A stretch of 64,000 bases of DNA from Escherichia phage ECP2303, in the sequence record PP261279.1; one strand, 5' to 3'. The translations under genes and the position numbers were made by a program. The notes beneath the pieces were generated by a model. The model was not told the origin of the DNA, made no database searches, and was given only the letters and a program-made list of their open reading frames with translations. This document shows positions 2,230 through 34,471 of the stretch, piece by piece (positions within the stretch are counted from its first letter, which is position 1; each line of letters starts with the position of its first letter).

Positions 2230-5200
2230 TTACTTCAATTTCTCTTGCAATCCAGTAACAACCTCTGTCAATTTTTTAACCTGCTCCTCAAGGGCGGTTA
2301 TTTTATCGTCCTGTTCCCTGCAAACCTGGACAAGCAAGCCTGTTACAGCTGCGTAGTCAACGTTATAGAACCTTTCCTCAGTCATTAAAGGAATGCCGTC
2401 TTGAGTAGGACCTTCTATTTCCTTCCTTTTCACGAAAGATCCTACTGCCTCTGGCAATGCTTCCATAACCTCTTGAGCAATCACGCCTGCATAAGGCATA
2501 CCATTCTCTTTCAAGGTGTAGGTATAGCCTTTCATCTTTCTAATTGCTTCCAGAGCGTTAGGTATGACCTCTATGTTATCCTTCAGGTCCCTATCGGAAC
2601 TTTGACTAACAGTAGTACATTCTACCGTGCCGTTGACAGCAAAATATCTTGATTTAGCCTCATCTGCCTTAGCACCACAGTGGAATACCCAGCTGGCGAC
2701 TGTTGAGTTATCACTTATCTGAAACTCCAGCACATTCTTCCTATCTGCGCCATTACCCCAATAGTACAACCTACCTGTATTAGAAGGCATGTTGGAAGTG
2801 TTGGTAACATCCGCACCACCACCTGTGTGTATTGTGAACTCCGGTTCAAGATTGGATCCTTGAGTTTTTAAAGTGATACCTTTACCACCAAGCTGCTGCC
2901 AATGGCCCCATGTGAAAACACCACCTATCGTTGTTCCATAACGCAGGAATTTTTCTCCAAGATATGTCGTATATTCCTGTACGCAACTCTCTGGAACGTT
3001 GGCATAGTTTCTGTAGACAACGAGAGTACCTGCCTGGGAGCATGGGTAGTTTTTATCAAGTGCGGCCTGAGCATTAGCCTCCTGATGATAAAAACCCTCT
3101 CTATCCCCTTTGTAGTCGTTAAGGTCATTAGTCCCCAGCCCTTGACCACGGTGCTGAATAACTTTGTTCCATGCCCTATGGTTACCACCCTCGATAGATC
3201 TGGTGTATAGCTGATCAAGGCGACCAGCCATTTGGAAGGCATAGTTTCCAGAAAACGCCACAGACAGCCCACCAACAACCATCGAACCTTCAGGTCCGTT
3301 GACATTGCCTGCCATTATTTTAGAAGGGTTGTTAGGACCAAACTGGTTGTTCCAGTCTGCACCAGTATGGCATACAAAACCACCTGGAGCTGAGAAAGTA
3401 CCATCCTTGTTGAAGTTGTAGAATCTATGAGCTGTGCCTACAACATCGCGAACAATAACTTGACCAGCTTCCGGAGTAGATCTGAACTCTGCCTGGCCTT
3501 TGAGACCAGCACCATTACCGCATTTAGAGGTAAACGTACCGTTAGTCAGATCCTCTGTCCCATCAGATGCACACTGGAATCCTGCATTAGAGAATAACGC
3601 CTTTCTAGGACTGCCGTAGCACAAATAGTCAAGACCGTCTGCCCATAGCTCGACTTTTGGCATATTCATTTTGCTCATCACAGCATAGCGTTCAGCAGTG
3701 CCTATATAGTGCCACTGTGTGCCGCCGCCAGTGTAGAACCCTGAAGTACCTTTAAAATCAACAATAGGTCTGGTATTGGTGTTGTTATCTCCAAGAATGG
3801 CAAGATTCAAATCTGCTGACTGAAGAGGTGCAACGAACTTAACCCCATCCTGATTGTCTGTTACAGAGCCAACCTGGTAATCTTGCTCTCTGGTAAACAC
3901 TTCGACAACATTTCTACTTGCGTATATGCTGACAGGGAAAGCACGAGCCTCTACATAGAAAGCAACATACTCTTGTTTACCCCTTGTTGGAGCAACCATC
4001 CCAAGAAGTGCTTTTTCATTCTGGTAGAAATTTACTACCCCGTAGAAAGCGTCCCCTCTGTCTGTCCAACCACCAGTTCTATAGTGACACTGTAAGGTAG
4101 CACAGTTCATAGGGTCACCGCCGGATGACGATCTGGTAACTATGGTAATATCAGTGCCAGTTGCTGGAGCATAGTACGGATCTGTTCTAACGATAATTGG
4201 GTAGTATTTCCCATCTTCCATCCCTGCGGTTCTTGGCAGTGTTAAGAAGTCTTTTACACCTGCTGCTATAGGAACTTTGAACAGATTCTGAGCATCTGCT
4301 AAAGTTGTGGCTCCAGTACCACCTGCGGCGTGAGGTAAAGGTTCCCACTTGGCCTTCCGGTTGTTATAAACACCCCATTCCAAACTGCCGTTACCGGATT
4401 CGTCCATCCCGCCATCCCAGATAACCATCTTGGCGGCTTTCTTGGACCCCCAAAAGCCTCTTTCTGCTCCTGAACTACGGATCCACTCCCCAAGTCCCCA
4501 GTTTGTCAGCTGACCAGTAAGATCCCCAACCTGCATATATTTAGGACAGTCTAATACACCGTCCTCGCGGAAACCTAAATATCTATGAGTTTCAGATCCT
4601 TTTGCACCTTTGTGGAGGTGGATTGTCAACCAAGCCTTATTGTCGTTTCTTACCTCAGAATAGATCCTATAACCATGCTCAAGAATACCATCAGTATTAT
4701 ATTTATCTCCATGGAGAATACCTGAGGCCGATTTAACATCTCCAGAGTATTGAGCTAAGTAAAGGTGCCCGAAGGCTGGCGAGTTGTTTTTACCAAGGCC
4801 GATATGAGATCTGAAAGTATCATCGTTACGAGGTCTGACCATCGGCTGCCATGCAGTCCACTGGTTTGTGTTGGCCTGATAGGTTCTCAAATACCAAACA
4901 TCTACGTTAGAAAATGGATAGTATTCCTGACGACAACCTGTACCGCCGTTAGCATTGTTCTGCCAAACAATCAAGTGACCAGCACCAGAACCTGCAGGGT
5001 AACCATTTGCCTCAGTTGCATAAGCAGTCATCGGCTGGTAGTATACGCCATCCTGATTACCAGTCAAGTTATTGATATTGAAATTTGGCTCAAGGGCTGC
5101 ACGTTGCTTATAGAAAGCACCGATATTGATACGGACTCCAGCGGCATCTCTAGCCCCTGTGCCGCCTTGCTCTATAGCAAGAGGTTGCCACGAAGCTGTT

Positions 5201-12139: not shown

Positions 12140-13051
12140 TTATTTTCCGTTAACTTTGTTGTAGTTTCCCTGCTCAGATGGGACTATGGTAGAAGGTCTT
12201 CCATATTCCTGGTAATACCAATCCGCAGCAGATTGGGTAACACCGTTTTCATCTGTCCACATCATAGATTTGTATGGCTGCCACTCTTCTGCAGCATTTG
12301 TGGATGCAGTGTCTGCAAATGCCCCTGTGTCCCTCTTGTTACCTACGTTACTGCCATTCTTACAATCGTTGACAGCACCTTTTTGCTGGGTCTTGCCTAC
12401 TTTCTTAGGGTTGCTGTATACAGTTGCATTAACAACCTTGTTCAAGTAGAATGTGCGGAACTCTGTAAGTTCTACATCAAACACCATCGCAGCACCTTCA
12501 CCAACAGACTTGTTGGCAGAAAGACTGGTTATGATGTAGTTCTCAAGGAGCCTCTCCTCGGTAACCAAAGAAACCAACTGGCGCTTATTAATGATCTCAG
12601 TCAAAGCCTCCAGTGCAGCGCCTGGTCGCATAGATGCTGCAGGGTTTTTAGAGTCAGTATTCCTGTCAATGTAGTTTTGCTCATAGATTATGTGTGGTGA
12701 TGTATTTACCCTACCAGTAAAAGAAAATACACCATCTTTAATTACAGCGTGGTCTGACAGGGTAGATTTATCTTCCACCGCAAAATCAGTCTTATCAACA
12801 GAATGTTTGAAAGAGTAATTCTCAATCTGATCGAAGATGATGGCAAGATCGTTAGTAAAGTTTTTGCCCTTCATCTCCGTATTGCGACCACCATAGTTAA
12901 GACCGCTGACAAACATAGTGTACTTTACATCGCTTTCAGTTTGTTGCTCTGCCTTTTCAGCCTTTGGAGATTTAACCTCTTGAGGCTTGTACAGGTCTTT
13001 TTCATCAACTATATTGCTTGGCATAACCTCTCCAGGACACTCCGATACCAT
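12140..13051 (-). CDS. hypothetical tail protein (distal tail/baseplate region)
   Basis: 303-aa ORF directly downstream of the tape measure gene. Confidence 0.3.
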   Translation of the reverse strand: MVSECPGEVMPSNIVDEKDLYKPQEVKSPKAEKAEQQTESDVKYTMFVSGLNYGGRNTEMKGKNFTNDLAIIFDQIENYSFKHSVDKTDFAVEDKSTLSDHAVIKDGVFSFTGRVNTSPHIIYEQNYIDRNTDSKNPAASMRPGAALEALTEIINKRQLVSLVTEERLLENYIITSLSANKSVGEGAAMVFDVELTEFRTFYLNKVVNATVYSNPKKVGKTQQKGAVNDCKNGSNVGNKRDTGAFADTASTNAAEEWQPYKSMMWTDENGVTQSAADWYYQEYGRPSTIVPSEQGNYNKVNGK

Positions 13052-13130: not shown

Positions 13131-15470
13131 TTACCAAAGATCTGTTGACATAAAGTTAATATCCTTGTTGTTCTCCCACTCAAGTTTTGCATCAAGTATT
13201 TTGCTAAACTCCCCCTCATCTATTGAAATCGTGATTTTACCATCACTAATCTCTAAAGGGAGCATTTCCATAGTTCTTAATTGAGAAGCAAAACCAGGGC
13301 CACCGGGCAACGGAAGAGTCCCTCCCGGTAAGGTGTCCAAAGGATCAACAAACCCGTTACCTCCAGATATGATATCTTTGCGAATCATATCGCTGATAGT
13401 ATCCAGTTGCTGATTTCTCTCACTCAGTGGGTTGAAACGGTCATTAAATAACTCCCCGGCGCTTAATATTGTACCGATAATACCAAGCTTACCAAGCAGG
13501 CCAACTTTACCACCAGGTGTCTTGAGGCCACCTCCCCCTTTTCCTGCCGCACCACCACCAGATCCTTCTGTGGTAGCTGCACCTGCACCTGCTGCTCCAG
13601 CTGCACCTCTTATAGAACTAAGGAATTTGAAGGTTTTTACAAGCATAGATGCCATGACAAAACCTTTTGTCAGGGCGTTCACTACCAGCATAATGGCAGC
13701 AGCAAACCCTGCCCATTTAGCATAGCTAAAGGTGTCATTAAGCTCTTCAGAATATTCCTTCGTCTTAGCTGTTATGAGTCCCCATTTAATCCCCCATTCA
13801 AGGAAAAACATGCGGATCTTGACTATGGTATTGTTTAGTTCACCAACTACCCAGTTGAGACCTCTCACAAAACCACTAACAAAATCACCAGAGGCATCCC
13901 ACACAAATTGCAAAGTCTCACCAGTGCGAATCAGTGTATAATAGAACTCTGTTAGTTCATCAGCCCAACGGGTGAATAGTTTCTGACGAGACAGTTCAAT
14001 GAAGGTTTTCAGTCTGTTTTCTGCCAGTACGTTAGACTTCTGCATTCTTTCATAACCAGCTGCAGATGCCTCGTTCATGTACTTAGCCACATACTTCATG
14101 ATCTTGGCTGTCTTAACCTCACCTTTCTTCATCATGTCCATGAACTGATCCATGGATAGTTCAGAAAGACCAAAAGCCTCTTTGGTGGCTTTGATAAAAG
14201 GTTCGTATGCACCAGGCAATGCTTCAGCAAGTTGTTGCTTCAGTTCTTCGGACATTACCTGTCCTTTACCGAGCATTTGCTGGATTGCCATGATGCCACG
14301 CTGGTATTTTACCTCATCTGCACCGTAAGCAGCAGCATACTGTGAGTATGCAGAGAATAGCTCATGCACCTCTTGATTTGTCATCTGGTTTTTGGCGTTT
14401 ACCGCCATCTGGGCGTAACCTTGAAGACCAGATTTGAGATCAAAACCAAGACGCATAGCCTCTTGCTGGACAAACGCAACCTCACTGTTGGCTTTGTTTG
14501 GATCTCCAGTAACAGCAGTAAGAGCAGCACTTGCCCCCTCCATCATGTGACCAGATCTGTTCACAGCAGTAAATCCAGAGAAAGCCGTATACGCAGCTGT
14601 TGCATTAATAACAGACCTACGTAAGTCTCTCATGGCATCACCAAGTGTAAGCGTTTGGCTGGTGGCGCTTTTAAATCCAGACTGCAGAGCTGACAGGTGG
14701 GCGTTAAAGGTTGACTTTTTCATCTCTCCGCGAGCAAACCTGGACTCTAACTCTGAGTATCCTGGCAAGCTTCCACGGAATCCGGCCCCATACTTGGCAG
14801 AAAGTCTTATCGCAGAGTTGTAGAGGTGGGTTCTCCTTGCCTCACGATCCGACATAAGCTTATTATCCATACCAGCTTTACTGTCTCTTCTTAGCTGCCT
14901 ATGATAACGATTCATAGCGGCTGTCTGAGCTTTCACAAGGTTAGGGTCGGAAGCCACACCACCCATATTAGGGTTACCTGGGATATACTTGAAAGATTTG
15001 GCATTAGCCAAAACTCTTGCCTTAGGTGCCTTATAACCGCCGTAAGACACTGGTGCAGATTTGGTAGCCTTTTTGGCCTCTTTAGCTTGCTGCTGGTAGA
15101 ACTTACGCATCCTAGCCATTTCTGGATTTTTAGCGGTAAGATTACCCACAGCTTGTTTACGTCTCGCGTTCTCCCTACGTTCTATTGCAGCCCTTACTGC
15201 AGCCTCTTTCTTGGCCTGTGCTACGCTCTCCCTGTGCAGTTTAGCATTTGCCTGATATTGCTGTCTGGCAACCCGCTGCATTGTTTGCTGGGTTTTAACA
15301 GCCACTGCCTGCCATCTACTCATTGGGTTGGCTGAGTTAAAATCCTCGCCCAGTTTCCTGAACTCCCTCCCAATACTGCGAATTTTCTCTACAGCTTTTT
15401 TGTAGGAGGAGTTCTCTATCTCAAAGCCAATCTTGTTGACTGTTGTGGCAACTATTTTGTTTGTAGCCAT
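13131..15470 (-). CDS. tail tape measure protein
   Basis: 779 aa; long helical, coiled-coil-rich sequence with a Gly-rich segment (GAAGAGAATTEGSGGGAAGKGGGG); located after the chaperone pair. Confidence 0.75.
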   Translation of the reverse strand: MATNKIVATTVNKIGFEIENSSYKKAVEKIRSIGREFRKLGEDFNSANPMSRWQAVAVKTQQTMQRVARQQYQANAKLHRESVAQAKKEAAVRAAIERRENARRKQAVGNLTAKNPEMARMRKFYQQQAKEAKKATKSAPVSYGGYKAPKARVLANAKSFKYIPGNPNMGGVASDPNLVKAQTAAMNRYHRQLRRDSKAGMDNKLMSDREARRTHLYNSAIRLSAKYGAGFRGSLPGYSELESRFARGEMKKSTFNAHLSALQSGFKSATSQTLTLGDAMRDLRRSVINATAAYTAFSGFTAVNRSGHMMEGASAALTAVTGDPNKANSEVAFVQQEAMRLGFDLKSGLQGYAQMAVNAKNQMTNQEVHELFSAYSQYAAAYGADEVKYQRGIMAIQQMLGKGQVMSEELKQQLAEALPGAYEPFIKATKEAFGLSELSMDQFMDMMKKGEVKTAKIMKYVAKYMNEASAAGYERMQKSNVLAENRLKTFIELSRQKLFTRWADELTEFYYTLIRTGETLQFVWDASGDFVSGFVRGLNWVVGELNNTIVKIRMFFLEWGIKWGLITAKTKEYSEELNDTFSYAKWAGFAAAIMLVVNALTKGFVMASMLVKTFKFLSSIRGAAGAAGAGAATTEGSGGGAAGKGGGGLKTPGGKVGLLGKLGIIGTILSAGELFNDRFNPLSERNQQLDTISDMIRKDIISGGNGFVDPLDTLPGGTLPLPGGPGFASQLRTMEMLPLEISDGKITISIDEGEFSKILDAKLEWENNKDINFMSTDLW

Positions 15471-19339: not shown

Positions 19340-19816
19340 TTATTTTTGCTGTCCAATTTTAAAGGTTGCAGATTCCAGCAGCACATCGTAATGCCGCATA
19401 GCCTCGTTGAAGCCCTTCTCTTGTGCCCACTGCTCACTAACAGTAGGGTTACTAAACTGCCCAGCCTCAATAACAAACTGGATAGCTTTGGCTCCTGTGT
19501 CCCCCATCTGCTTAAGAACAGCCTCTGCACTTGATCCTCTAGCCATAGCTCTCAACAATTTTTCTGTCAAGGTCTGCAGTTGCGTGCTGTGAAATGCAAA
19601 GGCCGTCTCCATGAAATTGCGAACAGGCAGCCCGTTCCAACCGAAGTTGTGAATAGCTGCCAATGTTGCCATATTTAAGCCTGACGGGTGAGGTTCATCA
19701 TAAAAGCCGTAGGTTATTGTTTTGCTTTCAAGTTTCACAAGGTCTTTATAAAAGCGATCTAAACGCTTTAAGTTGAACCTTGTTTGACATTTAACCTTTA
19801 GCATTATATTCCTCAC
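19340..19816 (-). CDS. hypothetical head completion/neck protein
   Basis: 158-aa ORF in the connector region. Confidence 0.3.
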   Translation of the reverse strand: MRNIMLKVKCQTRFNLKRLDRFYKDLVKLESKTITYGFYDEPHPSGLNMATLAAIHNFGWNGLPVRNFMETAFAFHSTQLQTLTEKLLRAMARGSSAEAVLKQMGDTGAKAIQFVIEAGQFSNPTVSEQWAQEKGFNEAMRHYDVLLESATFKIGQQK

Positions 19817-21472: not shown

Positions 21473-22483
21473 TTAGCCACCGTTTTTCAGAGTTACTTTA
21501 ACAACCAACTCTGGACGGGTGTTAACTGCCAGCATGGAAGTTTCAGATTCAATCTTCTCTTCACGCAGGTATGCAGAGTGTTTGTACCACATATACAGTT
21601 CCTGTGCTGGAGTGTTTGCTTCGTTAACATCATCTGCCGGAGCAAAGTGCAGCTGGAACATCTGATCAATACCCATCGGCAGAATGCGAGCTTCTTTCTT
21701 AGGAATATTGCCAGAGATATCTTCGATAAAGGTGATACCTTTATGTTCAAACACACGGTATACGCTGTCTTGACCGCCAGCACCAAGACGGCGACGCAGA
21801 GGTTCCTGAGCAGAGCCGTAATAGGTGTATGCCAGTTCTACCAGCGGGTGATGGGTAATAGCACTGAAGAACTCTGGTGAGCACAGAGCTACAATACGAT
21901 AGCCAGCTGCGTTATCACCAGCTTGCAGTGCGATGTGCAGACGAGCTTCTTCCAGAACCTCCATAGGATCCTGATCTGCTTTTGCAGGGTCAATCTCAAC
22001 AGATTTCTGTTCAACACCCCACAGAGTGTAGTAGTCATACTGACAGGTGGTGTCACCAGGTGCATAGGATTTACCCAGAATAGCCTGGAACAGCGCTTTC
22101 TCACGCAGTGCTTCATGAGAAACACGGATACGGCGAACAACGCGGGTTACTACGTCCTGAACAGTTTTCGGAGCATCAGGGGTGAAGTAACGACGGAAGT
22201 TCTGAACATCTGCGGCAGTGATGCCTTTGTCCAGAGGGAAGAACGGGATGTTCAGGTTTTTAACCTGGGCACGTTCACTACCAACGTAGTTACGCTCACC
22301 ACCACGACGGCGTGCCGGAATGTCGGTTACAACTTCATCAACACGCTCGATCTGAGCAATCGTTGAGGTGCCGAGACGGGTTTCGAACAGATCCATACCA
22401 GTAATCAGTCGGAATTGGCGCGGAACAAGTTCCAGAGTAGCACCTAAATCAACAATGCCAAATTCATCTTTACGAGTAATCAT
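21473..22483 (-). CDS. major capsid protein (lambda gpE-like family)
   Basis: 336 aa, size and sequence pattern similar to lambda gpE; preceded by decoration and scaffold genes and followed by a strong terminator. Confidence 0.75.
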   Translation of the reverse strand: MITRKDEFGIVDLGATLELVPRQFRLITGMDLFETRLGTSTIAQIERVDEVVTDIPARRRGGERNYVGSERAQVKNLNIPFFPLDKGITAADVQNFRRYFTPDAPKTVQDVVTRVVRRIRVSHEALREKALFQAILGKSYAPGDTTCQYDYYTLWGVEQKSVEIDPAKADQDPMEVLEEARLHIALQAGDNAAGYRIVALCSPEFFSAITHHPLVELAYTYYGSAQEPLRRRLGAGGQDSVYRVFEHKGITFIEDISGNIPKKEARILPMGIDQMFQLHFAPADDVNEANTPAQELYMWYKHSAYLREEKIESETSMLAVNTRPELVVKVTLKNGG

Positions 22484-28715: not shown

Positions 28716-28792
28716 TGGTCTCCACGGAGTGATTCGAACACTCGACCTCCTGATCCCAAATCAGGCGCTCTACCAAGCTGAGCTACGCGGAG
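28716..28792 (-). tRNA. tRNA-Pro (anticodon UGG)
   Basis: Hand-folded cloverleaf: acceptor with C1-G72, D-arm GCTCAGCTTGGTAGAGC, anticodon loop UUUGGGA, T-arm GAGTG-TTCGAAT-CACTC, CCA encoded. Confidence 0.7.
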
Positions 28793-28803
28793 TATTTATT
28801 ATT

Positions 28804-28878
28804 TGGTGGCCCTGGGTGGAATTGAACCACCGTCTGGCGATTATGAGTCGCTTGCTTGAACCTTCCAGCTACAGGGCC
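28804..28878 (-). tRNA. tRNA-Met (anticodon CAU; initiator-like loop CUCAUAA)
   Basis: Acceptor GGCCCTG/CAGGGCC, anticodon loop CUCAUAA, T-arm GGTGG-TTCAATT-CCACC, CCA encoded; could alternatively be a lysidine-modified Ile tRNA. Confidence 0.6.
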
Positions 28879-28879
28879 A

Positions 28880-28955
28880 TGGTGCTGATGGCAGGACTTG
28901 AACCTGCAACCTATTGATTACAAATCAATTGCACTGACAATTGTGCTACATCAGC
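28880..28955 (-). tRNA. tRNA-Thr (anticodon UGU)
   Basis: Acceptor GCTGATG/CATCAGC, D-stem GCAC/GTGC, anticodon stem ATTGA/TCAAT with loop UUUGUAA, T-arm GCAGG-TTCAAGT-CCTGC, CCA encoded; 1-nt spacer from tRNA-Met. Confidence 0.7.
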
Positions 28956-28959
28956 AAAA

Positions 28960-29058
28960 GGTGCTAGGTGATGGAATCGAACCACCTATGTATTCAACGA
29001 CTACCTCGTCTATTTTCAGGATTAAAAATCCTCGCCCTTGCCAAAGGGCTTACCTAGC
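28960..29058 (-). tRNA. atypical tRNA-like gene (99 nt; Lys-type UUUUUAA anticodon loop; ~30-nt insertion before the T-arm)
   Basis: Perfect 7-bp acceptor (GCTAGGT/ACCTAGC), D-arm GCCC-TTTGGCAA-GGGC, 4-bp anticodon stem AGGA/TCCT with loop UUUUUAA, extra hairpin ACGA-GGTAG-TCGT, T-arm GGTGG-TTCGATT-CCATC; too long for a canonical type I tRNA and not folding as a standard type II. Confidence 0.35.
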
Positions 29059-29156
29059 GCAATATGTTGACCATGTGGCTAGTCGGCGATGACGACTGTA
29101 ACATTTGATAATCCGGTTCTGCTTCCGGCTTTCGCTTAATTACAAGGTCAACAATG

Positions 29157-29247
29157 TGGCGGAGAGTAATGGAATCGAACCATCATCGAGTTATCCTCAA
29201 CGGGACGGTTTTCAAGACCGCTTGAGCACCATTGCTCCCTACCCTCC
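29157..29247 (-). tRNA. tRNA-Ser (anticodon UGA), type II
   Basis: Anticodon arm GCGGT-CUUGAAA-ACCGT nearly identical to E. coli tRNA-Ser(UGA); long variable arm; T-arm GATGG-TTCGATT-CCATT; CCA encoded; 91 nt. Confidence 0.7.
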
Positions 29248-29361
29248 TTTATAAATTACACTGATAATGACACTGATTTTCGAGCAGTTAGTGACTAGTA
29301 TAAACGACGATAAATATCAATGTCATTATCTGTATGATTTATGCATTTAAAAATATAAATT

Positions 29362-29448
29362 TGGTGGGGAGTGGTGGAGTCGAACCACCCGAGTCGCAAT
29401 GACAATAGATTTACAGTCTACACCGCTACCTCTACGGGATAACTCCCC
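29362..29448 (-). tRNA. tRNA-Tyr (anticodon GUA), type II
   Basis: Anticodon arm GTAGA-CUGUAAA-TCTAT and variable region TGTCATTGCGACTCG resemble E. coli tRNA-Tyr; T-arm GGTGG-TTCGACT-CCACC; CCA encoded; 87 nt. Confidence 0.65.
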
Positions 29449-29452
29449 AATT

Positions 29453-29527
29453 TGGCACCCCGTACTGGACTCGAACCAGTGTCAACGGCTTAGAAGGCCG
29501 CTGCTTTATCCACTAAGCTAACAGGGC
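29453..29527 (-). tRNA. tRNA-Arg (anticodon UCU)
   Basis: Acceptor GCCCTGT/ACGGGGT (two G-U pairs), D-stem GCTT/AAGC, anticodon stem GCGGC/GCCGT with loop CUUCUAA, T-arm ACTGG-TTCGAGT-CCAGT, CCA encoded. Confidence 0.65.
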
Positions 29528-30825: not shown

Positions 30826-31404
30826 TCAACGTTCGTAGTAAATCTTATTCAACATTACCTCATCGTTTGCAGAAAGGATATCAAGATATGCATCACCAAA
30901 TCTGCCTGCAACAACCTCTGCATGATACATCACTTCGTTAACATCGTCAAGAGTGATAACCGGATGACCATATCTTTCTGAATATTGTCTCAGTGTGCGA
31001 TGTAACGAGTCGTCATCATATGCAGACTTTTTAATATCACAAACACGACGAATGGCCTTGATGTCGAAAAAACCTGTGCGATACCACCCAAGAAAAAAGT
31101 TCCGTGTAGTGTCAACATCTACATCAATACCATTAAGAACCTTATCTACAAGATAGCTGTCATCCTTTGGACTAGCGTCCTTAGTGCGAATGTAGTTGCC
31201 ATCTTTTCCAGGTGATAGCTCCTTCTCATCACCAACTTGCATGCCATCATTTGGCGGTGTTAGCCACTTATCAGGATGCTTACGATCACGAGCGTTAGAA
31301 TGATTACGCTGGAAACCTGGCTTCCACTTGAAAGTTTTCTCCATCTGTTCTTCATTCTGATAACGTTTTGCAATCTTTTCACTGGCATCTTTGCGTGAAC
31401 TCAT
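30826..31404 (-). CDS. hypothetical early protein
   Basis: 192-aa ORF with GAGGAG RBS; first gene downstream of the 660-bp non-coding hub. Confidence 0.45.
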   Translation of the reverse strand: MSSRKDASEKIAKRYQNEEQMEKTFKWKPGFQRNHSNARDRKHPDKWLTPPNDGMQVGDEKELSPGKDGNYIRTKDASPKDDSYLVDKVLNGIDVDVDTTRNFFLGWYRTGFFDIKAIRRVCDIKKSAYDDDSLHRTLRQYSERYGHPVITLDDVNEVMYHAEVVAGRFGDAYLDILSANDEVMLNKIYYER

Positions 31405-31908
31405 AGCAGACTCCTCTTCAAGTTATAGAAAAACTCACTGTATCGCTTTGTAACGAGCTTTTCTATCAAACTGGTGCGATTGCCTTACTTGGTATAGTTT
31501 ATATAGCTGTGGAGCGATTTAGGGGCCTTCTTGTCAGTTTCCACACATAAACTTTATCCGAACTCGCGCGGGAGGCTCTCAACCGACTCCTTCCGGCGCT
31601 GGCAAGCTTTCGTCGGTGGTACACATTAGTGCTCGGCCTTTGGCCTGCGCTATCGCTTCGCTCCCACACATGTTAACAGTCCTGCATGTATGCACTTCTG
31701 TTATTGTGTGCACTATGGAGGCCCGGCATCTCGCCCCTCGTAGGCGAGTGCCAATGAAGGGCCGACACTACCCATAATAAGTAATAAATTTAAAACATGG
31801 TACTTAGGATCTAGTATATTCTACATAAGTTAAGTATATGTACTTTAGTACCATAAGTACTAGATCTTTTATTTTTATTATTTAGTTATTTTAGTTATAT
31901 TCTTTATG

Positions 31909-31989
31909 TGTCCGTATCACGGACAGTTAGTGTCCGTATTACGGGCAGATGTGTCCGCGTGACGGACAGTAGTGTCCGTATCACGGACA
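31909..31989. repeat. array of four 17-bp palindromic iterons (TGTCCGT-ATC-ACGGACA) phased at 21-22 bp
   Basis: Copies at 31909-31925, 31931-31947 (variant), 31952-31968 (variant centre), 31973-31989; each has 7-bp inverted arms; read directly from sequence. Confidence 0.85.
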
Positions 31990-32064
31990 GTTACTAACCT
32001 CTGTTCCAGAGTGAACATAAAACATACAAATCCTTATAGTACAGATGTTTAAGTTTTTACTGGT

Positions 32065-32415
32065 CTAACCAGTTGTTGACATTCGAATAACTTCTTCTGG
32101 TGGCAAAACTTTGTAAAATGTGCATCTTTTACCTCTCCCTTGTGTGGATATTTCAACCACTCCTGCACATTCTAAAGTTTTAACGCACGCTGCTGCTTTT
32201 GTTTTCTTTATCCCAACATCTGCTGCAATTTTCCTTGTGCTGGGTGTGAAGCGTGAATTTTCTCCAAGCTTATACCAGTTGTGCAGATAGCAGTATACGA
32301 TCTTGTCATATAAGTCAAGAACAACAACCTCCCCAGTTGTGTCATTCAAAACTTTTGACATAGACAGTATTTCAAGGGGGACTTTAAGATATAGCAGCTT
32401 ATCCCCATCTTTCAT
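32065..32415 (-). CDS. winged-helix DNA-binding protein (putative transcriptional regulator or initiator)
   Basis: 116 aa; TRKIAADVGIKKTKAAACVKTLECAGVVEI has the helix-turn-helix pattern of wHTH regulators; gene ends ~75 bp from the iteron array. Confidence 0.5.
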   Translation of the reverse strand: MKDGDKLLYLKVPLEILSMSKVLNDTTGEVVVLDLYDKIVYCYLHNWYKLGENSRFTPSTRKIAADVGIKKTKAAACVKTLECAGVVEISTQGRGKRCTFYKVLPPEEVIRMSTTG

Positions 32416-32462
32416 ATCTCCTGATTCTCCTTGTGTGGCAATTTTCTTTAAAATAGCAGGGA

Positions 32463-33017
32463 TTACTCCCCGCTGTCAATAGCAAGACTCATTGCAATAC
32501 GGTATGCCTCTTCTAATGGTAAGAGTCTCCCCCACACATCCCAACCGACATCAAACTGCCTGCCAAACAACTGCTGTGTGGTTCCGTGAGCATGACCGAA
32601 CAGTTGGACTGATCCGTGAGGCTTTCTGTTCCACTTTGCAAACTGGTAATGGCTCATACAGATCAAATTCTTGTTGTGGCGAAGCTCGTAATAATCTACA
32701 ACCTCATGACCGAACTCTTTCATAATTCTGACAGTCGTTCTTGTGTCATGGTTACCACGAACAAGAATAATATGTCCGTTCAACATATTTAGAACATCTG
32801 GAAGCAGTTTGTTGATATTCTTATCATTAGTGCACGCAATATCCCCCAAGTGAAACACAGTGTCTGCAGGTGACACAACAGAGTTCCACTTGGTGATGAT
32901 TCCCGCATTCATACTGTCAAGATTGTGATCATACTGAGATCTGTGTTTTTGACATGAGTCGAACTCCATTACCCGCTGGTGGAGAAAGTGTGTGTCGCTT
33001 GTTACAAAGTATTTCAT
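32463..33017 (-). CDS. calcineurin-like metallophosphoesterase (putative RNA/DNA 3'-phosphatase)
   Basis: Start at ATG 33017 (GAGGAA RBS); motifs SDTHF, GDIACT, GNHD, GHAHG correspond to metallophosphatase motifs; coupled to the kinase gene. Confidence 0.65.
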   Translation of the reverse strand: MKYFVTSDTHFLHQRVMEFDSCQKHRSQYDHNLDSMNAGIITKWNSVVSPADTVFHLGDIACTNDKNINKLLPDVLNMLNGHIILVRGNHDTRTTVRIMKEFGHEVVDYYELRHNKNLICMSHYQFAKWNRKPHGSVQLFGHAHGTTQQLFGRQFDVGWDVWGRLLPLEEAYRIAMSLAIDSGE

Positions 33018-33024
33018 ACATTCC

Positions 33025-33435
33025 TCATTTAAGTTTAATGCAGTTTTTAAGCTGGCGTTCCATACGATCCACAACCCTGTCTGGAACATCATGAATGCTT
33101 TTATTACCATGGCGGTTTTCAACCACGATCACGGTATAACTATATCCATGACTGATCGCCATGTCAATATATTCTTGCACATATTTTTCTTTTGTAAACG
33201 TATTACTTACCACGATACGGTCGTAGCCCATACGCATCATATCTTCTACGTTATCTTTGCACCATTTTGCTGCAAGTGTTACTTTACTTGCATCCCAATT
33301 GTAATTGCCGTCATCGTCGTACCAGAACATATCGTTCTCAAAATGTGGATACAGACCTTCTAAAGATAGCGCATTTGCCAGTGTTGATTTGCCAGACCCT
33401 GGTAGACCACGCACGATATATAGCATTTTAGACAT
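33025..33435 (-). CDS. P-loop polynucleotide kinase-like protein
   Basis: Start at ATG 33435 (GGAGAG RBS); Walker A GLPGSGKST near N-terminus as in T4 Pnk kinase domain; 136 aa. Confidence 0.6.
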   Translation of the reverse strand: MSKMLYIVRGLPGSGKSTLANALSLEGLYPHFENDMFWYDDDGNYNWDASKVTLAAKWCKDNVEDMMRMGYDRIVVSNTFTKEKYVQEYIDMAISHGYSYTVIVVENRHGNKSIHDVPDRVVDRMERQLKNCIKLK

Positions 33436-33463
33436 AGTAACTCTCCGTTTTAATTTTAATGAT

Positions 33464-33492
33464 AGTATACCTAACTGTTTTGTTAATTTCAA
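33464..33492 (-). promoter_or_regulatory. sigma70-type promoter for the kinase/phosphatase operon
   Basis: Minus-strand TTGAAA, 17-nt spacer, TATACT; about 30 nt upstream of the kinase start. Confidence 0.4.
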
Positions 33493-33495
33493 GTG

Positions 33496-33524
33496 TTGAC
33501 ACCAGGTTATTTGTGTGGCAGAAT
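33496..33524 (+). promoter_or_regulatory. sigma70-type promoter opening the plus-strand block
   Basis: TTGACA, 17-nt spacer ending TGTGG, then CAGAAT; divergent from the minus-strand promoter. Confidence 0.4.
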
Positions 33525-33556
33525 AAAGGGACAAAATGACAAATGAGGAATGTATG

Positions 33557-34471
33557 ATGAAGTATTTTAATGCAGACGACCTGGTTGACAAAGGTCTTGT
33601 AACCAGCAGATATTACCCAGATCTTGGATTAAAGATCTACAAATATGCCAGAAAAGTATTCTACAACAATTTATGGCATTTGTCTCCGCGTTTACTAGAG
33701 TGCCGAGGCATTGTTGTCGGTAATGAAGGAAATGTTGTGGCATGGCCCTTCACAAAAGTGTTTAATTTGGGAGAAAACTCCACCAACCTGCCTGACAATA
33801 AACTTGTGACGGCGGTAGAGAAAAAGAACGGATTCCTTGGTGTGGTATCATCTCATAAAGGTGAACTATTGTTTTCAACAACCGGGTCTCTTGATTCTCC
33901 ATATTGTAACCTTGCAAAGGAAACCATCCAGGAGCAATGTGGTAATTTAGATCTCATCAAAAAGGTTATGGGCCATGAAAACATGACATTCATGTTTGAA
34001 ATTTGTCACCCTTCAGATCCGCATATTGTTCAGGAAGACCATGGCGCATATTTGATAGGTTGCAGATATAACGATTCTGGAATAATGCTACCAGAAGCAG
34101 CTTTAGATGGGATTGCCAAATACCTTGGTGCAAAACGTCCTCACACTGTGCGTGAAATTCCGTTCAGCTATGCAAAAGAATTAGCTGCAGAAACAAGAGG
34201 TGAAGGGTATATGATTCGTAAGCCTTACTACCCTTATGATCTGCAGCTGAAGATCAAGTCTCCATACTATTTGGCACGGAAGGCCGTAATGAGGGGTAAA
34301 GCTTGGAAGATTTGGGATGATGATATCTTTAAACGTATTGACGAAGAGTTTTACGGCATGGTAAACTTCATTCGTAACAATTACACAGAAGATGTGTGGA
34401 ACTGCCTCCTAGAGCAGGAACGCCGTGAGATACTTGACTGCTATTTCCACAACGAGGACTATATGCAATGA
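33557..34471 (+). CDS. RNA ligase 1 (T4 RnlA-like)
   Basis: LECRGIVVGNEG and FNLGEN match T4 Rnl1 (LECRGIMFEMDG, FNLNEN); nucleotidyltransferase motif I KKNGFL matches KEDGSL; start assigned to ATG with GAGGAA RBS (track start 33536). Confidence 0.75.
   Translation: MKYFNADDLVDKGLVTSRYYPDLGLKIYKYARKVFYNNLWHLSPRLLECRGIVVGNEGNVVAWPFTKVFNLGENSTNLPDNKLVTAVEKKNGFLGVVSSHKGELLFSTTGSLDSPYCNLAKETIQEQCGNLDLIKKVMGHENMTFMFEICHPSDPHIVQEDHGAYLIGCRYNDSGIMLPEAALDGIAKYLGAKRPHTVREIPFSYAKELAAETRGEGYMIRKPYYPYDLQLKIKSPYYLARKAVMRGKAWKIWDDDIFKRIDEEFYGMVNFIRNNYTEDVWNCLLEQERREILDCYFHNEDYMQ

Follow-up and report, generated by a model that had tools for sequence, protein, structure and literature searches.

Genome and locus

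The subject of this analysis is a 660-bp gap between genes (positions 31,405 to 32,064) in a 64,000-nucleotide stretch, here called the window, of Escherichia phage ECP2303 (record PP261279.1), an rV5-like myovirus of the genus Vequintavirus. On the minus strand the gap lies between the gene for a 116-aa winged-helix protein and that for a 192-aa protein of unknown function. A sequence-only reading of the window had described it as free of long open reading frames (ORFs) and as made up of a GC-rich structured segment, an AT-rich tract and a repeat array, and it had offered three readings without ranking them: a replication origin or centromere, a repressor-controlled promoter, or a non-coding RNA locus. 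Comparative evidence supports these in part and sharpens them: two non-coding units, independent of each other, make up the gap. The first, comprising the array, the AT-rich tract and the winged-helix gene, is a candidate replication origin, and the second is a modular structured element that is probably an RNA gene. Coordinates of the features are collected in Table 1.

Over the gap and its flanks, Escherichia phage ECP2309 shows 100% identity, and 117 further records match at 91-99% identity. The absence of ORFs of at least 60 aa was borne out, the largest being 56, 53 and 44 aa. Several GenBank records annotate three tiny ORFs (56, 31 and 33 aa) in the gap, but these have no PHROG match and no reading frame is open throughout the homologues of the gap, so that the small ORFs were rejected as genes. 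A 36-aa GC-rich frame that had been pointed out does exist, although it belongs to a 53-aa ORF with a GTG start that is not conserved. When conservation was measured as mean pairwise identity among 11 rV5-type loci, the non-coding pieces of the gap proved to be conserved to the same degree as the coding flanks.

The palindrome array and the AT-rich tract

The repeats had been taken for plain direct iterons. Four copies do occupy 31909-31989, but each is a 17-bp palindrome, TGTCCGTATCACGGACA (TGTCCGT-ATC-ACGGACA, with 7-bp arms and a 3-bp centre). The pattern gives eight matches in the window (four sites, both strands) versus 0.04 expected by chance, which excludes chance as the source of the array. 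The whole 136,863-bp genome was rebuilt from the window and three fetched pieces for scans of uniqueness and composition; it contains no further good copy, only one match with two mismatches. Natural isolates carry two, three or four palindromes. No sigma-70-like promoter overlaps or adjoins the palindromes on either strand, and the rV5 paper has no entry for this region in its tables of promoters and terminators (PMC3606486).

The AT-rich part was likewise confirmed (GC 0.21 at 31800-31899), and the 9-bp inverted repeat reported within it, GATCTAGTA and TACTAGATC, is exact. It is one of several overlapping inverted repeats that precede a T-run, and the 40-mers starting at 31853-31872 mark one of just two places in the genome with at least 87.5% A+T over 40 nt. 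The tract is a candidate DNA-unwinding element and/or plus-strand terminator of a structured RNA. The 8-bp repeat within it was rejected as the stem of a minus-strand terminator, having two mismatches in phage Aya as read by eye. What fell away was the proposed connection between GATC sites and the adenine methylases of the phage: the gap has two such sites (about 3 per kb) versus 5.4 per kb genome-wide, and the 660 bp show no local clustering of the kind found in Dam-regulated elements such as P1 pac or in oriC sequestration. Matches to the integration host factor consensus were also not reported in the gap. Plasmid origins of the RepA/pi/RepE type have direct, non-palindromic iterons of 17-22 bp plus DnaA boxes; the present locus does not belong with them, as its sites are palindromic and no DnaA box with at most one mismatch is found in the gap.

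The winged-helix protein and its promoter

The 116-aa protein matches the Pfam families HTH_36 (E 1.9e-5, at the Pfam threshold) and DUF6945 (E 1.7e-6), and its predicted secondary structure fits a single winged-helix domain. Its best PHROG is PHROG 12838, 'replication initiation protein' (E 2e-78), and other Rep and lambda O-like PHROGs match it weakly (O-like phrog_391, E 0.0044). It also shares 23% identity (pairwise E 1e-5) with the N-terminal domain of an O-like Rep of 288 aa that the plasmids described below encode. Neither tblastn of the phage database nor a peptide scan found relatives outside Vequintavirus, and among 1.84 billion representative proteins there were just 16 relatives at E <=1e-3. 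These are generic HTH_36 proteins, some of them multi-winged-helix and Rep/DnaD_N-like and some fused to GIY-YIG or T5orf172 nucleases, so that membership of the family is by itself no proof of an initiator. The sole sequence match in the PDB is an uncharacterised protein, 4ro3. The 116-aa protein is the putative binder of the palindromes.

A sigma-70-like promoter upstream of the gene would drive the expression of the winged-helix protein, with transcription continuing into the palindromes. The same arrangement was seen by eye in L006, the divergent contig discussed next (TTGACA-18-TATACT at 2803-2832). The assignment is ambiguous because the spacer of the promoter forms a GC hairpin, annotated as a terminator in the Murica record; the hairpin could terminate the upstream Pnk/phosphoesterase transcript, instead of or besides having a role in the promoter.

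Exchange of the cassette among related phages

The most informative relative is L006, a divergent rV5-like metagenomic contig of 137 kb, which retains the genes for the 192-aa protein and the phosphoesterase, the structured element, and a promoter-like site ahead of a winged-helix gene. Its winged-helix protein, of 143 aa, is just 27% identical to the 116-aa protein, and in place of the TGTCCG palindromes there are four or five copies of a different palindrome, TCTGATGCAAATATGTATCAGA, at spacings of 21-22, 33 and 55 bp, close to multiples of 11 bp. A different T-rich tract stands in place of the AT tract. Proteins of the L006 type occur on 8 contigs of up to 139 kb, and beyond these no relatives were found, making this protein an orphan. 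A protein and its cognate binding sites would be expected to be replaced together in this way while the locus stays the same, and the swap suggests that protein, palindromes and AT tract make up one exchangeable cassette. As the junction of the swap in L006 falls exactly at the last hairpin of the structured element, the latter is a separable unit.

In the sister genera Henunavirus and Phapecoctavirus, the genes for phosphoesterase, RNA ligase and Pnk make up a single colinear block that lacks the cassette; the cassette was thus acquired at the level of the genus and is no origin ancestral to the subfamily. In Vequintavirus, the genes for the Pnk-like protein and the phosphoesterase run in the opposite direction to the RNA ligase gene (32416-33591 versus 33536-34471; cf. 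L127 and L128), and the winged-helix cassette comes after the inverted pair. The rearrangement of the RNA-repair genes and the acquisition of the cassette may be linked.

A modular structured element

The GC-rich segment reported in the first reading was confirmed (GC 0.53-0.60 over 31500-31750 versus about 0.42 for the genome), as was its nested hairpin, in which GGCCC(31720-24)-GGCA-T-CTCGCC pairs across the loop CCTCGTA with GGCGAG-TGCC-AATGAA-GGGCC(31759-63). Alignment of homologues resolves a 5' domain in which about 40 variable nucleotides separate ATTTAGGGG from GCGCGGGAG-CTC, and helix P2 with an invariant loop comes next. It is followed by hairpin modules in variable number joined by linkers of the CCCACACA type. 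There are at least four modules, combined differently in different plasmids. The phage element has a module of its own and a 3' hairpin in common with plasmid pCP020521. In the divergent plasmid CP134895 the 5' motifs, linkers, modules and terminator are kept, while P2 and its loop have been swapped for another hairpin.

The pattern of substitutions supports the structure. Over the 112 nt that can be aligned between the window and pCP020521 there are 16 differences, of which 10 form five compensatory Watson-Crick pairs; by formal count, five pairs have changed on both sides, a number reached by 0 of 500 shuffles and by 0 slid registers. Similarly, in module M3 of two plasmids, eight of ten substitutions form four compensatory pairs. 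Pairing is lost at none of the nine covarying positions, and unpaired cells occur solely at the outer end of helix P2. The compensatory changes come from few independent lineages, and five of the nine are confirmed by formal pair counts and controls. On this pattern, the GC-rich part is a genuine structured element; it forms a unit separate from the rest of the gap. A long 5' helix predicted by single-sequence folding (31522-34 with 31566-79) was discarded since, as read, it is not maintained by the L006 substitutions, and a putative pseudoknot of GCGCGGGAGG with the conserved loop is weakened by an uncompensated C/A polymorphism at 31593, as read.

The element has no match in Rfam 15 and is neither a tRNA nor a tmRNA: the best Rfam score in the gap is 22.5 bits versus a gathering score of 100, the matches at the gathering threshold in the window are tRNAs elsewhere, and the plasmid and L006 variants have no Rfam match either. 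A host origin of the GC-rich segment was rejected, as there was no chromosomal match in 5,426 E. coli genomes. Outside Vequintavirus, homologues were found only in circular E. coli plasmids of 13.2-13.9 kb and in matching gut-metagenome contigs. An exact-pattern scan of the genome collection returned chance GC-rich matches, among which the sole enterobacterial one (L057) and an extra viral one (L011) are ordinary coding sequence. A pattern scan of metagenomes added solely rV5-like and plasmid-family members, and IMG/VR gave one true match.

Two short motifs of the element also occur elsewhere. The linker CCCACACA is present eight times in the window versus 2.3 expected, a number that 0 of 100 shuffles reach, with seven of the eight on the plus strand (+ 6258, 12088, 13898, 27854, 31663, 32531 and 41926; - 59184); the excess may be an effect of codon usage or be linked to the element. 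The motif ATTTAGRGG, with which the element starts (31517-31525), has three copies upstream of or at the element in some plasmids (3715-3722, 3894-3902 and 3950-3958 in L003), one of them directly after a promoter-like -10 hexamer. The plasmid copies form part of a small hairpin with a T-run after it (L107, 1441-1458), perhaps an attenuator or a start site.

The 13-kb plasmids

The plasmids that share the element are circular, 13.2-13.9 kb, and come from E. coli isolates of several countries, with gut-metagenome contigs in addition (family members L005, which is NZ_CP043822.1, L003, L107-L109, L115, L116 and L130). One was assembled as a 39.6-kb head-to-tail trimer. Local tblastn revealed that their relationship to the phage extends to the virion, with distant homology to a baseplate-type phage protein (50% identity, E 2e-60), a 154-aa protein of unknown function (45%, E 8e-34), a 779-aa phage protein that matches the plasmid tape-measure gene (26%, E 3e-14) and the major head protein (25%, E 5e-12). 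The phage genes concerned lie in the virion gene cluster of the window, at 12,140-13,024, 13,131-15,470, 19,340-19,804 and 21,473-22,483. The 288-aa plasmid protein has O-like and Rep PHROG matches at E 1e-9 to 1e-12, and its gene is about 2 kb from some ten direct iterons, with the structured element in between. The plasmids look like an undescribed family, of mini phage-plasmids or of satellites, with a virulent myovirus as relative. The favoured view is that the element is passed down as a unit of its own in the rV5-like lineage, these plasmids included. That the element is common to a 137-kb virulent myovirus and to mini phage-plasmids of the same virion lineage suggests either common descent or a helper-satellite-like exchange.

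The iterons beside the element are wholly different between members of the plasmid family, being of the GGAAATATTTACCG, TTTTACAGGTAGTAGTAAAA and GGAAATTCCCGCATATATATGT types (L003, 4850-5150; L115 and L116, downstream of the element; L130, 2700-2960), which suggests diversification of Rep/iteron specificity. In addition, L003 has at 4620-4740 three 24-nt repeats with the palindrome ATATCAnnTTGATAT.

Strand and molecule of the element

The element is probably a plus-strand RNA gene, antisense to the flanking genes, a reading based on the plus-strand terminators that follow it in the plasmids and in L006. In the plasmids, a canonical terminator (11-bp stem, then TTTCATTT) stands immediately 3' of the module array, and in L006 the element is directly followed by terminator-like hairpins with a long T-run. 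The AT-rich repeats of the window, with their T-run, fold at -27.3 kcal/mol (z -2.98) on the plus strand and at -17.8 kcal/mol (z -1.09) on the minus strand. A few G.U pairs at helix ends form on the plus strand alone. The 3' end of the element faces the protein-binding repeats in the window type, the L006 type and the plasmids alike. Such an RNA would be regulatory or priming-related for the neighbouring origin or the late operon.

Several observations pull the other way. All nine compensatory changes go from Watson-Crick to Watson-Crick pairs, one helix position changes from A-U to a pair that is G.U on the minus strand alone, the minimum free energy favours the minus strand by a mean of 3.8 kcal/mol, and there is no convincing plus-strand promoter for the element in the phage. 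Folding energy was set aside as a means of choosing the strand, the two strands folding about equally well. In the two plasmids scanned, a plus-strand promoter-like site matching at 9 of 12 positions, about 170-240 nt upstream of the element, is a weak candidate. Less likely alternatives, given such mixed evidence on the strand, are a role as single-stranded DNA and one as a minus-strand leader, and both are weighed below.

Among known RNAs, the element resembles non-coding RNAs of the CsrB/RsmZ and CrcZ type in its variable number of hairpin modules, in the short conserved motif between them (CCCACACA) and in its final intrinsic terminator. It differs from them in that the motif is not of the GGA or CA type and is base-paired in some phage variants, and in that no partner protein is known and no Rfam match exists. 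As a putative transcript aimed at an AT-rich segment that would unwind easily it recalls the T4 R-loop origins oriF and oriG and the ColE1 RNA II primer, the T4 origins also in their setting in a large virulent phage; unlike here, those origins need no site-specific initiator or iterons, while in relatives of the present element terminators part the RNA from the AT tract, and no promoter has been identified. A broader proposal, tentative and rather unlikely as it stands, is that the element represents a new class of structured RNA, or of signal in single-stranded DNA, that only rV5-like viruses and the 13-kb mini phage-plasmids possess. It would act in trans or in cis at the neighbouring cassette (priming, copy control) or in cross-talk between helper and satellite (for example a recognition signal common to both in replication or packaging). 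In that case the CCCACACA linkers would be both a functional motif and the points at which modules are shuffled.

A candidate replication origin and its rivals

The architecture of the cassette and the family of its protein fit, by sequence, a lambda-type origin better than a promoter/operator, because no sigma-70-like promoter overlaps the sites, the genome has no other copies of them and the protein is a distant relative of the O-like plasmid Rep. We consider that the cassette has nearly an even chance of being such an origin. The four sites, lying on the same face of the helix, would each be bound by a dimer of the 116-aa protein, and the DNA would be bent or wrapped; transcription from the protein's own promoter would help to destabilise the adjacent AT tract, at which the phage's own helicase-primase would enter. 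The origin of lambda has four dyad-symmetric iterons bound by dimers of the O protein, an adjacent AT-rich region and transcriptional activation. The present locus is like it in having four sites, each dyad-symmetric in itself and about two helical turns from the next, an AT-rich tract immediately beside them (a likeness of composition), a putative binder whose winged-helix family would include O-like initiators, and a predicted transcription unit of this candidate initiator that traverses the sites; and the swapping of protein and sites together between related phages is like that of the lambdoid O/ori specificities. It is unlike it in that the sites are downstream of the gene rather than within it, no P-like loader gene is adjacent, and the genome is that of a 137-kb virulent myovirus with its own helicase-primase.

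A number of findings count against the origin. The 116-aa protein is without the C-terminal domain by which lambda O recruits the helicase loader, and no helicase-loader gene is adjacent to its own. HTH_36 is a generic domain, found also in nuclease fusions and regulators, and the AlphaFold model of the protein (mean pLDDT, the predicted local distance difference test, 44.7) was too poor for use. The gap has no DnaA box with one mismatch or fewer, isolates with just two or three palindromes occur, and the cassette is missing from the sister genera and from all other phages in the database. The global minimum of the cumulative GC skew, the one indirect sign in favour of initiation here, is 1.4 kb to the right of the locus; it falls on a switch of gene orientation, which is a confounder, and the authors of the rV5 genome, who tried skew analysis, saw just such orientation switches and defined no origin (PMC3606486).

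The main competitor, possible if somewhat unlikely, is a transcription switch or roadblock, in which the 116-aa protein is a transcription factor and the four palindromes its operators, with cooperative binding that blocks or insulates the early Pnk/phosphoesterase/winged-helix unit from the late unit (the 192-aa gene, tRNAs, terminase and virion genes), or that controls the promoter of the structured RNA. A small single-domain winged-helix protein with dyad-symmetric sites is typical of dimeric repressors, the locus heads a long minus-strand unit with the morphogenesis genes (PMC3606486), and repressor/operator cassettes are likewise swapped as units, so that the exchange in L006 would resemble the swapping of immunity regions; the restriction of the cassette to one genus is also as for an accessory regulator. 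The switch is at odds, however, with the want of a sigma-70-like promoter at the palindromes and of any entry there in the rV5 tables, and with the position of the palindromes downstream of the protein's own gene instead of at its promoter, and it gives no role to the extreme AT-richness or to the Rep-family affinities. A partition or centromere-like site is most improbable, as is the coding of the annotated small proteins by the GC-rich segment. Phased repeats with a small DNA-binding protein do resemble ParR/parC-type centromeres, but no partition ATPase gene is annotated within the neighbourhood of about 7 kb and the phage is virulent. As for the small proteins, their annotation in several records and the fact that both indels among close relatives are multiples of 3 are outweighed by the variable number of modules, by substitutions that occur as compensatory pairs, and by the overlap of the 33-aa ORF with repeats that vary in copy number in steps of 21-22 bp, in addition to the failings of these ORFs described above. 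There is also a precedent for non-coding tandem repeats whose number varies between isolates in an rV5-like phage, the pseudo-ToxI locus of PhiTE; ToxI units are 36 nt and form pseudoknots that inhibit ToxN (PMC3475682). Unlike ToxI, which is non-palindromic, the array here repeats a 17-bp palindrome every 21-22 bp, and it bore no resemblance to ToxI.

Two further alternatives concern the structured element. In the IncQ oriV, the ssiA and ssiB hairpins stand beside iterons and an AT-rich region, and G4-type primase sites offer another comparison. The GC-rich part could thus be an ssi/sso-like initiation signal, exposed for priming by the unwinding of the AT tract, a proposal that is compatible with the origin and that we judge unlikely. 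The linear order of protein-binding repeats, AT-rich tract and GC-rich hairpins mirrors that of IncQ (RSF1010) oriV, the element is beside a replicon in the plasmids also, and compensatory changes that all keep Watson-Crick pairs, in an element whose two strands fold about equally, are in keeping with a DNA signal. Yet the iterons of IncQ are direct repeats bound by RepC, and its ssi are hairpins of about 40 nt on opposite strands recognised by the RepB' primase, whereas the element here is modular, at some 250-350 nt far above the size of known ssi signals, and has shuffled modules; canonical plus-strand intrinsic terminators close it in two lineages, suggesting a transcript, its 3' end is the L006 junction that makes it separable from the cassette, and its helix-end G.U pairs are on the plus strand alone. 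Decidedly unlikely is a structured 5' leader of the late operon, for example a stabiliser or a processive-antitermination RNA like put of HK022. Such a leader would account for a minus orientation that equals that of the downstream operon in phage and plasmids alike, for the slightly better average folding of the minus strand and for the position with G.U on that strand alone. It conflicts with the strong sigma-70-like promoters of the plasmid operon, which sit between element and genes, with terminators that are on the plus strand, and with an AT-rich hairpin that is much more stable on the plus strand.

The neighbourhood and related records

Beyond the flanking genes (Table 1), the terminase and virion genes are on the same minus strand, further downstream of the tRNA cluster, and a divergent block on the plus strand opens with the RNA ligase gene at 33536. 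The 5' spacer contains a hairpin (31425-31466) with 12-nt arms, ATAGAAAAACTC and GAGCTTTTCTAT, which come shortly before the ribosome-binding site of the 192-aa gene. This hairpin is conserved, largely so in L006 as well, and may be a regulatory or stabilising structure of the 5' untranslated region. Within the tRNA cluster, a 99-nt tRNA-like gene on the minus strand (28960-29058) is given a 4-base anticodon (atcc) by ARAGORN and 35.5 bits by Rfam, and its equivalent in another record is annotated as a 97-nt tRNA-Lys. It may contain an intron or be otherwise unusual.

Table 1. Features of the gap and its surroundings in the window, with mean pairwise identity among 11 rV5-type loci.
Feature	Position	Strand	Identity	Remarks
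tRNA cluster	28716-29527	minus		small ORFs, then seven tRNA genes, beyond the 192-aa gene
192-aa protein gene	30826-31404	minus		unknown function
Flanking genes			94.4-96.7%
5' spacer	31405-31516		95.0%	from start of 192-aa gene to structured element; 12-nt-arm hairpin 31425-36/31455-66
Modular structured element	31517-31768	+	95.8%	multi-hairpin, ~250 nt
Opening motif	31517-25			ATTTAGGGG
Motif	31566-79			GCGCGGGAGGCTCT
Helix P2	31582-87/31612-17			encloses invariant 24-nt loop TCCTTCCGGCGCTGGCAAGCTTTC at 31588-611
Hairpin	31628-32/31647-51			GGCC-TTT-GGCC
Linker	31663-70			CCCACACA
Variable hairpin module	31665-31710
3' hairpin	31720-31763
AT-rich tract	31771-31907		96.8%	overlapping inverted repeats, then T-run 31867-31905
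AT-tract inverted repeats	31778-98/31864-84; 31797-804/31847-54; 31808-16/31858-66			last pair is the 9-bp repeat
Palindrome array	31909-25, 31931-47, 31952-68, 31973-89		99.0%	locus maximum; spacing 22, 21, 21 bp (two helical turns)
71-bp spacer after array	31994-32064		88.2%	to stop codon of winged-helix gene; least conserved gap piece, 34% variable columns
116-aa winged-helix protein gene	32065-32415	minus		HTH_36 / DUF6945
Sigma-70-like promoter	32450-32479	minus		TTGACA-18 nt-TATTTT, with TG; 10/12 match
Metallophosphoesterase gene	32463-33122	minus
Pnk-like (polynucleotide kinase-like) ATPase gene	near gap	minus

Complete phages of this kind are also deposited under other names. CP057073.1 (PLSDB; 137,565 bp) is a complete rV5-like phage genome that was entered as a 'plasmid' of E. 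coli, its source being a cattle-faeces culture, and eighteen UNVERIFIED 'Campylobacter phage' records are rV5-like coliphage genomes; both are probably carrier-state or contaminating phage in sequenced cultures. Literature searches brought up no account of the locus, of a replication origin in rV5 or of satellites related to rV5. The rV5 genome map does mark a 'non-coding' box, although the region that it covers could not be made out (PMC3606486).

Significance

Taken at face value, the locus would combine known kinds of element, an iteron origin cassette of the lambda type, its initiator-like protein being minimal, placed beside an undescribed structured element. That element is supported by covariation and present in more than 100 sequenced phage genomes, yet it is absent from Rfam and in some records is mis-annotated as tiny ORFs. 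Its sole other carriers, the plasmids, point to an undescribed group of mini phage-plasmids or satellites with kinship to a virulent myovirus. The rV5-like phages are widely isolated, are candidates for the control of O157 and are represented in the BASEL collection, but their replication origin has never been located; the locus supplies one precise candidate, together with a putative cognate protein and a natural allelic replacement that would serve as a handle for specificity swaps.

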